A DNA stretch of 21,866 nt. Source: a virus. Taxonomy: Duplodnaviria > Heunggongvirae > Uroviricota > Caudoviricetes. The stretch spans positions 1 to 21,866 of the IMG/VR virus record IMGVR_UViG_2541047936_000002; one strand, 5' to 3'. Made by a program: the position numbers. Shown here one piece after another: positions 6,001-9,000 of the stretch. Position 1 is the first letter of the stretch. Each line of letters starts with the position of its first letter.

Positions 6001-9000
6001 CGATGGAGAAAGATTGGACTTGTAGGGGTGGAGCATGTTCCAGACGTTTCTGCCGTAACAGGGATTCCCGCTCATGAGCTTAGGCCAGATAAGCCAAAAC
6101 TTTTCCCACACCCAAGCTTAGCGCACACAGAAGATGGAGTGTGCGAAGGAGATAAACAGTGAACACCGCAATTTTTAACGATAAAGCATCCATGACCAGC
6201 GTTGAGATCGCAGAGCTGGTGGGTAGTCAGCACTCAGATGTTAAACGTAGTATCGAACGCCTGGTTGCTAAAAACATCATCCGGAAACCGCCAATGGCTG
6301 TTTCCGAGAAAATCAATAACTTAGGTTTTAAAGTTCAATATGAGCATTACCTGTTTGAAGGAGAACAAGGTAAGCGCGACAGTATCATTGTCGTCGCACA
6401 GCTCTGTCCTGAATTCACTGCTCGCCTGGTAGATCGTTGGCGCGAACTGGAAGAGCAGGTGCGCAAACCAATGAGCGAAATCGAAATGGTTGCCGCGATG
6501 GCTCTTGAAGCAGTTCGTCAGCAAAAACGCCTCGACAAGATGGAAGAAAAAGTTAGCCACGTTGCCGAAACTGTCGAACAAATCAAAAGAGGCACCATAC
6601 GCGATGGTTATGCAGGATACCGTCAGCTGGTGGCGAAAACAGGTATGTCAGATGCGAAATGCCGCAATCTGGTGAACGATTATCAAATTCCTACAGACAC
6701 CCATGAGTTCATGACGCCGGACGGATTGTTGTCACGTCGCGCAATTGTTGCCGTGGAACCTTTTATGGCTGCTTTTTATCGGGTTATGGAGGAAGCAGAA
6801 CCGCGAGGGACTCGCTGGTATCACCCGAAAATGGGGTTATTTCAGGTTATTGGTTGGCAGCGGTGAAAAAAAGCCGGGAGTAACCCGGCTCACTCAACAT
6901 CAATAACGGGGAGCTGTTTCGCATAAAACGGCTCCGAAACATCCAAGAACAGTTCTAAAGATATCAGCAGCTATATGATCATTTCAAGACCAAATATTGA
7001 TTCTGCAATTTCGGGACGTTACACTGTCTCTGCACCTTATAAAGCGGGTGCCGGGGGTCGCAGCCCGGAATTGATCAAGGCGATATACGACGCGCCAGCG
7101 TCTTTTTTATCGTCTGCGCTCACGCACGCCAGAATTATGGTGGGCTGGGCAGGGGAGCCGAAAGGCTCGCCGGTTTCCTTGATCGCCGGTACTGCGAACC
7201 CTGTTCAGTTCACCACCCATGAGTTTCGCAGCTCCGGTGGTGGAAGTTTTTCACCGATCAAGGAGGCTGCCATCATGGCTACAGTCCCAACTTCCCCATT
7301 CCTCAAAATCGAAGTCGTCAACGGCAAAGCTGTTATTTTCTCCCTGCATGTTGCCTGCCACTTTAAGCGCATGCACCAGAACATCGTCGACAAAATCGAG
7401 TATCTGAACTGCTCGCGCGAATTTTTTACCCGCAACTTCATACCGGGTACTTACCACATCTATGGTGACTCCCTGCGTGGTTATTACATCACCCTTGATG
7501 GCCTGATGATGCTTCAGCTTGGGTTAAGTCTACGCACAATGCGGTACTACGAGAGCTGCATTGGAGCATTCCATGAGGCTGAAACCAGCCTGAATCACAC
7601 TGCTTTTCGCCGTAATCAATGGGAGGTACGCCCATGATTAGTTACGAAATCATCATCTCCACTACGGAATACAGAAACGATGTATCAGTTCGCACGGATG
7701 TATCTGTCTGGCACCGTCGCTATAAATCCAGAAAAACGGCGGAACTGAAAGCGGCAGAGATGTGTGAAACCATCTCAATGAAAGGTAGCCCGGTTAAATA
7801 CGTAACTACGGCGGAGGTGCGTCCATGATCCGCTACATCGTTAATTCCCTGTATCACCGATACAACCGTTGCCCCCGTGTGGGGCAGTGGTTCGCCACCA
7901 GCAACGGTCACGTTCTGCGGGTTTGCCTGGTCAATACAGAAAGCCAGAAGGTTGTCTGCCAGGTTCAGGGACGTACTCATACCCTGAGTTATCCGCTGGT
8001 GGCTTTTCAGTCCGGGAAAATGTTTAAGCGCCTGGGAGGTGGCTATGCGTCCGTCTGATCTTCTGCTCGATTTTGGGCATCCGGTTGCTTATTACCCTGG
8101 GCTCGTTAAATACATGGGAAGTCCGCACGCTGTTATTTTCTTTGGTCAGATTTTCTACTGGCAGGATAAAGCACATGCAGCGGAAGGCGTACATAAAACG
8201 CGTGAAGAGATACAACACGAAACCGGACTTACATTTGAACAACAGGCTGTAGCGCGTAAGCATCTTGTGTCCAGAGGCATTTTGGTTGAAACCAACAAGC
8301 GTCTTGAGCACAAAATGTTCTACCGTATAGATTGTGAGCGTCTTAATGAAATTATCAATGAAAACAATCACTTTTCCCGAAATGGGGAAACCCGTTTTCG
8401 GGAAACTGTAAAACCCGATTTCGCGGAGGAGGGAAAGCCTTCACCGCGGACACGGGAAACCCCTCGCCGCGGAGAAGGGAAAACCAATTTCGATCTTACA
8501 GAGAATACAACAGAGATTACTTCAGAGAATACTACAGAGAGTAAAAACACTATTGGCGCATCCGCTGACGCGTCTGCACCAGCACGTTCTGCCCGACAGG
8601 AATATTCACCGGAATTTGAACAGGCCTGGCAGGAATATCCCAAACGTGCTGGTGGTAATTCCAAGTCAGCAGCCTTCAAAGCCTGGAAAGCCCGTATCAG
8701 GGAAGGTGTGACACCCGAAACCATGCTCAACGGTGTGAAACGCTATGCCGCCTGGGTGCGTGTCTCAGGAAATACCGGCACCCAGTTCGTGAAGCAGGCA
8801 TCGACGTTCTTTGGCCCCGATCGGCACTTTGACGAATCCTGGCAACAGTCAGCAGCTCCCGGAGGTGGGCGGGGCAAAAGCCTCCCGATCTCGGGATTCA
8901 GTGAACAGGACTACGGCTCAACGAACTTCAACTGGTGATTTTGTGGGGTGTGAAAATGACTAATTTCCTGAACAAACAATACATGCAACACGACAAAGCG

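Follow-up and report, generated by a model that had tools for sequence, protein, structure and literature searches.

Introduction

The immunity factor of the satellite phage P4 has been shown to be an RNA. In this phage, kil and eta reportedly form a nested gene pair, and translation of eta on transcripts from an upstream promoter is said to make transcription insensitive to immunity. The immI region of phages P1 and P7 is said to be ordered c4 - icd - ant. Here, we compare these systems with a locus of a lambdoid prophage, the gap of about 400 nucleotides (nt) between two Rha-like genes. The DNA analyzed, hereafter called the window, is the left part of this prophage (IMGVR_UViG_2541047936_000002; 21,866 nt). 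We are highly confident that the gap is an antisense-RNA control module of the P4/P1 type (IsrK-C4), inserted after the early genes (cro, rha) and ahead of the replication operon.

The isrK-orf45-anrP region of the Salmonella prophage Gifsy-1 was described by Hershko-Shalev et al. (2016; PMC4825925), who presented IsrK as a structural homologue of P4 seqA and compared STnc1160 with CI. In Gifsy-1, IsrK binds Hfq, its terminator is partially read through and the RNA activates the downstream open reading frame (ORF) in trans; moreover, translation from the AUG at position 107 (orf45) is required for the activation of anrP (PMC4825925). An "IsrK-C4 immunity system" has been named in P4 and in lambdoid prophages (Barquist et al., 2013; PMC3632133), and the c4 and c4-a1b1 motifs were listed by Weinberg et al. 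(2010). In addition, isrK and C4 are annotated next to each other, upstream of Rha/BRO-type genes, in the GenBank entries for Stx2 phage F004 and APSE-7. The module is already known, and we analyzed how it is built at this locus, how it evolves and what it implies for the ORF annotated over it.

Results

The gap matches the IsrK and C4 RNA families

Two Rfam matches were obtained in the gap, both on the plus strand. The isrK model is matched over its full length (positions 1-77 of 77) with 57.6 bits for a gathering score of 50 (E = 3e-10), and the C4 model over positions 1-87 of 87 with 85 bits for a gathering score of 45 (E = 9e-16). The c4-a1b1 model of Rfam scores only 17 bits at this locus, whereas isrK passes its threshold. 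The features of the module are as follows:

6866-7274: gap between the two Rha-like genes
6997-7025, plus strand: inferred module promoter, read from the sequence (-35 TTGATT at 6997-7002, 17-nt spacer, -10 TACACT at 7020-7025)
7032-7108, plus strand: IsrK-like small RNA (sRNA), equivalent of P4 seqA (Rfam RF01394)
7032-7051, plus strand: IsrK hairpin 1
7052-7067, plus strand: IsrK hairpin 2, with b1 (UCGCAG, 7058-7063) in its loop
7073-7080, plus strand: a1 (GAUCAAGG), single-stranded, within IsrK
7089-7108, plus strand: IsrK terminator, GACGC-GCCA-GCGTC followed by T6
7133-7220, plus strand: C4-type antisense RNA, equivalent of P1/P7 C4 and of P4 CI RNA (Rfam RF01695)
7137-7139, plus strand: AUG at transcript position 106, counterpart of the first AUG, that of orf45, in Gifsy-1
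7174-7185, plus strand: a' (UUUCCUUGAUCG), in the loop of the second C4 hairpin
7191-7198, plus strand: b' (ACUGCGAA), in the C4 bulge
7209-7245, plus strand: alternative hairpin of the unprocessed transcript, formed by the C4 3' arm (7209-7217) and GGUGGUGGA (7236-7244), with b2 displayed in the loop
7225-7231, plus strand: target b2 (UUCGCAG)
7255-7264, plus strand: target a2 (CGAUCAAGGA), overlapping the Shine-Dalgarno AAGGAGG (7260-7266)
7275-7637, plus strand: small Rha-like gene of 120 amino acids (aa), downstream of the gap

The inferred promoter would set a start near 7032, 7 nt past the -10 and exactly at the first base of the isrK model. The C4 match folds as a 17-bp outer stem enclosing two inner hairpins, and its minimum-free-energy fold agrees with the consensus. 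Its a' sequence is complementary to a2, with a 10-nt pairing that covers the Shine-Dalgarno of the ATG at 7275-7277, 8 nt further on, and b' is complementary to b2 (7 nt). The IsrK mimic sites a1 and b1 are likewise complementary to a' and b'. The duplex of a' with 7254-7269 reaches -21.6 kcal/mol, and none of 500 shuffles pairs as well. In the minimum-free-energy fold of the read-through RNA, the boxes of IsrK are paired in cis with those of C4.

We compared the module with a phage database, in which its copy is 100% identical to that of phage ASU11 and close to those of many Stx phages. From about 6994 on, a point that coincides with the -35, the sequence is homologous to 378 records of this database, and the sequences that adjoin the module upstream of this point comprise at least 14 unrelated ones. 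This edge and the variety of upstream contexts indicate a mobile module of about 6994-7283. The isrK and C4 pair was found in all five relatives tested.

An earlier note on this DNA had described the gap as a possible small antisense RNA locus, bracketed by opposing terminators. Its observation is confirmed and its interpretation partly supported: the gap does encode small RNAs, but from the opposite strand, of a known family and directed at another target. A regulatory RNA locus working by antisense pairing was thus correctly proposed, whereas the strand, the identity and the logic were not, the locus holding two rightward RNAs whose target lies downstream. The rightward terminator announced about 200 bp beyond the leftward one is present at 7089-7108, within the isrK match; the terminator scan alone was not significant (5 sites versus 2.5 +/- 1.5 expected). 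However, the two terminators do not bracket one leftward gene, since the rightward one belongs to the rightward IsrK, itself followed by the rightward C4. The question was settled at the RNA level.

The pairing boxes co-vary among modules

Modules were collected from IMG/VR and from phage records, giving 116 unique sequences with 26 a' variants, 15 b' variants and 40 combinations of the two. Within a module, the a'-a2 run is most often 9 nt (non-self mean 4.7) and the b'-b2 run is 7 nt in 113 of the 116 (non-self mean 4.1). On the IsrK side, the most frequent own-module run is 8 nt for a'-a1 and 7 nt for b'-b1, with non-self means of 4.8 and 4.4, respectively. We therefore observe a three-way co-variation between the C4 boxes, the leader targets a2/b2 and the IsrK mimics a1/b1.

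The structure was tested on an alignment of 53 sequences, with all pairs below 93% identity, and the control consisted of sliding the pairing partners. With the proposed structure, 92.5% of the cells are paired versus 35-44% with slid partners, and every variable helix shows compensatory changes. Changes on both sides were found for 6/6 pairs of IsrK hairpin 1, for 5/5 pairs of C4 hairpin 1 and for 9 of the 17 pairs of the C4 outer stem, which is 93.5% paired. Compensatory pairs amount to 6/10 for a'-a2 and 5/7 for b'-b2. Between IsrK and C4, the boxes are paired at 93.9% (b1-b', 99%; a1-a', 91%) versus 35-53% with slid partners, again with changes on both sides. The alternative hairpin, in which the C4 3' arm pairs with the downstream GGUGGUGG, is 86.5% paired, and seven of its nine pairs have changes on both sides. 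This co-varying hairpin at 7209-7245 suggests a precursor conformation that would compete with the mature C4 fold. Overall, this pattern of co-variation is the one expected of RNA-RNA recognition in which the specificities are allelic, a situation known from P1 and P7.

A close relative, IMGVR_UViG_2671181028_000005 (1558-3058), has three tandem IsrK-C4 modules, 656 nt apart, the first of which is identical to the single module of the window; the pairing boxes were read for two modules of this relative, and each has a different a'/b' specificity. C4-like sequences were also observed on 140 plasmid records (among them E. coli plasmids of about 48 kb and plasmids of Arsenophonus, Sodalis, Vibrio and Klebsiella), mostly with no annotation underneath.

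The locus resembles P4, Gifsy-1 and P1/P7 in different ways

The elements of the module have the order and spacing of those of P4 (PLE - seqA - CI RNA - seqC - kil, with the nested long ORF eta). The isrK model matches the seqA region of P4 and the C4 model its CI RNA. As in P4, the target box extends over the ribosome binding site of the gene that is translated first, and the kil start context, GGAGGCTGCCATCATGGCTAC, is identical to positions 7262-7282 of the window. P4 also has a long frame that starts upstream of PLE and stays open across seqA and CI until it reaches kil; its ORF over the CI RNA (P4 8168-8584) matches Pfam Ash, the P4 antirepressor epsilon being PF25738. The two loci differ in the controlled gene, a 120-aa Rha-like gene here and the 65-aa Kil in P4, and in the host element, since the lambdoid prophage has its own CI/Cro switch and P4 is a satellite. 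Moreover, the spacer between IsrK and C4 is 24 nt here versus 107 nt in P4, and the box sequences, and with them the specificity, are not the same.

The likeness to Gifsy-1 includes a rightward IsrK, the terminator of which is leaky in Gifsy-1, and a downstream structured segment (STnc1160, overlapping orf45 there) that pairs with the middle of IsrK. An AUG is found at transcript position 106 here and 107 there, and in both cases an antirepressor-type gene follows in a lambdoid prophage context. The cis fold of IsrK with C4 corresponds to the inactive "structure A" of Gifsy-1 (PMC4825925). However, orf45 ends in an AUGA overlap with anrP, providing translational coupling, whereas here the frame passes without a change of phase into the Rha-like gene, whose own Shine-Dalgarno is strong and complementary to a'. 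In addition, we identified no AntQ gene adjoining the module in the window.

The comparison with immI of P1/P7 draws on the Rfam definition of the C4 family, of which both are members. In P1/P7 as here, the ribosome binding site of the following gene holds a2/b2, with which loop a' and bulge b' pair, copies a1/b1 lie upstream, and allelic variants of the boxes set the specificity (26 a' by 15 b' in our collection). P1 differs in that icd and ant are the controlled genes, and in that its upstream a1/b1 segment is the one modelled by Rfam c4-a1b1.

The ash frame runs through the RNA module

A long ORF is annotated over the module:

6975-7637, plus strand: long ORF of 220 aa, RefSeq "ash family protein", made of the RNA module in frame and the nested Rha-like gene; position of P4 eta

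The translated 6975-7274 segment matches Pfam PF10554 (Phage_ASH) with 60.7 bits, well over the cut-off of 26, and the NCBIfam search gave no match to an Ash model. Together with the RefSeq name, this match would suit a genuine folded Ash domain fused to the Rha domain, the RNA matches being incidental, and PMC8951638 handles Ash as a protein domain of unknown function. The state of the frame points in the same direction. In the phase of the downstream start, it is free of stops in 86% of the unique modules (6% and 33% for the other two frames), and variants of the variable boxes create no in-frame stop (0/51, versus 7/51 and 15/51 in the other frames). An in-frame ATG is present upstream of the promoter in 14/14 upstream contexts, several of them with a good ribosome binding site (GGAGG-N7-ATGA) coupled to the preceding gene. 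Nevertheless, we consider it very improbable that the segment encodes such a domain. The variation by codon position is flat in IsrK (0.94/0.87/0.84), C4 (0.42/0.42/0.52) and the leader (0.68/0.57/0.52), and the substitutions are accounted for by RNA pairing, through the compensatory changes and the three-way co-variation. About 20 divergent modules lose the frame yet retain every RNA feature, an intrinsic terminator stands in the middle of the "domain", and the P4 ORF that matches PF10554 overlies the CI RNA gene. The Gifsy-1 authors also saw that the nucleotide sequence was conserved and the amino-acid sequence was not. Finally, an open frame is expected anyway if read-through translation matters, as for P4 eta and Gifsy-1 orf45.

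The earlier note had found the composition of the ORF over the gap unlike that of a protein, and our data agree: 7032-7274 has no excess of variation at third codon positions, unlike the ORF from 7275 (0.76/0.57/0.93), the pattern of which is typical of a real coding sequence. Translation of the 6975-7274 frame and its conservation as a protein had been named as a result that would speak against an RNA locus; the frame is indeed conserved as open, but its sequence evolves as RNA rather than protein. From the AUG at 7137, the frame has the phase of the downstream start and contains no stop in 94 of the 116 unique modules; in the window, the leader frame at 7137-7277 has no stop and is fused in phase to the Rha-like gene. 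In two of the divergent modules, the leader frame instead terminates at an AUGA that overlaps the downstream start, which is the Gifsy-1 arrangement.

In our reading, the ash frame would be a read-through frame constrained by RNA function, with no folded domain, and Pfam PF10554 appears to translate the IsrK and C4 RNA genes. More certain than the leftward RNA considered below is that many RefSeq/Pfam entries named "ash family protein" or "Ash domain" are read-through translations of the IsrK-C4 module.

Two further observations concern this frame and its name. In some papers, Ash has been identified with epsilon or regarded as a protein domain without a known function. In phages Stx2a_WGPS2 (1179-2330) and mEp460 (1177-2328), the annotated "antirepressor/Rha" proteins of 383 aa begin about 320 nt ahead of the module, where an ATGA overlaps the preceding gene, and the open frame thus extends well past the module. 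We considered whether the 107 N-terminal aa of these proteins could be a real domain. This was rejected, as the segment has no Pfam match and an implausible sequence, and it was taken as an upstream extension of the open frame.

A leftward terminator and a possible leftward RNA

The left part of the gap, outside the mobile module, contains the following elements:

6866-6891, minus strand: leftward terminator-like hairpin, stem 6873-6878/6884-6889, A7 at 6866-6872, directly past the stop codon of the upstream Rha gene
6941-6950, minus strand: conserved 10-nt block GTTCTTGGAT, invariant in 3/3 sequence types, possible 5' end of an RNA
6958-6987, minus strand: hypothetical leftward promoter (-35 TTGAAA at 6987-6982, 18-nt spacer, extended -10 TGaTATCTT with its hexamer at 6963-6958)

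The leftward-only terminator expected directly after the first Rha-like gene was recovered. Its hairpin (GCCGGG-AGTAA-CCCGGC, 6873-6889) has 8 pairs, 6 of them G-C, with a T7 tail on the minus strand only, the plus strand having no T-run. The resemblance to the lambda OOP locus that had been drawn from it holds for the place between early regulatory and replication genes and for a leftward terminator adjoining the 3' end of a rightward gene. However, OOP is antisense to the 3' end of cII, whereas the minus-strand T-run (6872-6866) ends here at the upstream stop codon (6864-6866), so that the overlap with this ORF is at most the last base of the stop codon and the analogy fails. An OOP-type RNA would have its own leftward promoter within about 80 nt of the terminator, for which this locus offers an unconvincing candidate, and the rightward terminator is that of IsrK. 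Moreover, the rightward RNAs would act on the ribosome binding site of the gene at 7275 and not, in the manner of OOP, against the upstream gene.

A separate sRNA of about 85 nt, in addition to the rightward module, is a possible but rather unlikely reading of this region. It would be transcribed leftward from the promoter at 6987-6958, with the conserved GUUCUUGGAU at its 5' end (about 6951) and the terminator (6891-6866) at its 3' end; having no overlap with the upstream ORF, it would act in trans. A canonical leftward terminator and a promoter-like site with a TG extension agree with it, and the -35, TG, -10, 10-nt block and terminator are conserved in three sequence types (TTGAAA-18-TGnTATyTT for the promoter), in which the spacer and the middle of the RNA diverge. 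The 10-nt block begins exactly 7 nt past the candidate -10 in two of these types. In the terminator, the stem is kept and the loop is variable in these three diverged types, and one C-to-T change in the stem retains a G-U pair solely on the minus strand. The putative RNA (6951 to 6866) has a predicted fold of -28 kcal/mol (z = -3.2), driven mostly by the terminator.

On the other hand, the promoter site that had been postulated within 6890-7270 is represented by this single candidate, which is conserved but has only 9/12 consensus matches, and the region contains just as many such sites as chance would give. Its conservation is ambiguous, because the same bases include the ATG at 6975 and the first codons of the ORF, so that constraints on the plus strand could explain it. 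The variants in the middle hairpin are disruptive and not compensatory (GGAGC to GGAAC, CGGAG to CAGAG). The check for co-variation across related prophages, suggested in the earlier note, was positive for the rightward module (116 modules), but only three leftward types were found, always in the same context and with no structural co-variation in any of them; a pattern scan of IMG/VR for further variants returned the same three types and two chance matches. The putative seed has no target in the window (6 matches at up to 3 mismatches versus 8 by chance), and a full-text literature search with the seed sequence returned unrelated primers only. On the minus strand of 6800-7320, Rfam at a permissive E-value gave only weak, terminator-driven matches (sroD, 24.5 versus 50 bits; PrrF, SorX and others). 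Finally, this hairpin moves together with the upstream Rha gene, and a related Rha gene carries another hairpin, of identical polarity, about 25 nt before the start of the following gene. As this leaves no room for a promoter, it suggests that the hairpin belongs to the upstream gene and not to an sRNA gene.

Since the candidate promoter is conserved in the three types, a short leftward RNA limited to 6866-6951 is conceivable, one whose internal structure finds no support. If true, the left third of the gap (6866-6987) would hold a third, undescribed sRNA, back to back with the IsrK promoter, and the gap would be a divergent three-RNA switch.

Gene context of the module

The genes of the window around the module are listed below:

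1-1287, minus strand: integrase
5050-5796, minus strand: CI-like repressor (S24 peptidase and helix-turn-helix)
5911-6162, plus strand: Cro-like gene
6159-6866, plus strand: first (upstream) Rha-family gene (Pfam Phage_pRha, 33.4 bits)
7634-8058, plus strand: two small ORFs
8039-11243, plus strand: replication genes (O-like, DnaC-like, DnaB-like)
15122-20999: cargo (methylase, Lom/Ail, NleG, DUF4765)

The product of the gene at 7275-7637 is Rha-like, slightly below the curated cut-offs (Pfam, 27.8 versus 29.9 bits; TIGR02681, 39.1 versus 45.95). This gene is the first of an operon that runs on into the replication genes. A scan of the window for tRNA and tmRNA genes found none. The cargo is typical of prophages of enterohaemorrhagic and enteropathogenic E. 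coli (EHEC/EPEC), with an Ail/Lom outer-membrane protein (15977-16636) and an NleG type III effector (16866-17435); a DUF4765 protein of 1128 aa is encoded among it on the minus strand (17613-20999).

Discussion

The RNA family matches, the RNA structures and the three-way co-variation of the boxes were observed directly. Experiments on P1, P4 and Gifsy-1 are the basis on which we infer the module promoter, C4 processing, Rho polarity, a decoy role for IsrK and an eta-like bypass. Transcription would begin near 7032 from the promoter at 6997-7025. Most transcripts would end at 7089-7108, giving a 77-nt IsrK-like sRNA, and those that read through would contain the 88-nt C4-type RNA (7133-7220), the leader and the Rha-like gene. 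C4 would be excised as in P1/P4, or act in cis, and its a' and b' would pair with a2 and b2 of the leader, covering the Shine-Dalgarno of the ATG at 7275 and blocking translation. By analogy with P4 and P1, this block would expose the transcript to Rho-dependent termination ahead of the replication genes. Because IsrK carries copies of the target boxes, with b1 in a loop and a1 single-stranded, it could bind C4 and would do so as an anti-antisense RNA. Such a decoy role would agree with Gifsy-1, where the short IsrK activates translation of its own read-through mRNA. The ash ORF from the ATG at 6975 would be the counterpart of P4 eta, and ribosomes arriving on transcripts initiated at a promoter further upstream would translate across the module and thereby overcome the block.

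Several points weigh against this interpretation. The IsrK and C4 transcripts, their ends and the processing of C4 are predictions from the sequence alone. The isrK score passes its gathering score by only 7.6 bits, and the inferred promoter has only 8/12 consensus matches, below the threshold of the promoter scan. The pairing energy of IsrK with C4 is unexceptional, being equalled by 44 of 500 mononucleotide shuffles, so that the support for a1/b1 comes from co-variation and not from energy. As the homologues share ancestry, the shuffle controls overstate the significance; the controls with slid partners are free of this problem. The ATG at 6975 lies upstream of the module promoter and has no Shine-Dalgarno, and the eta-like bypass may therefore not operate in this phage. 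Finally, C4 may act here in cis or in trans, and activation in Gifsy-1 was explained by refolding of the mRNA and translation of the leader ORF, without a processed C4 repressor (PMC4825925).

A practical consequence of this work is a corrected annotation, the DNA of the RefSeq "ash family protein" being that of an RNA-based control module. In an EHEC-type prophage with NleG, Lom and DUF4765 cargo, this module separates the CI/Cro switch from the replication genes, and its box variants, at least 26 for a' by 15 for b', make up a combinatorial specificity code. By analogy with the role of IsrK in Gifsy-1, it probably gives the prophage either a second immunity layer or an induction threshold.

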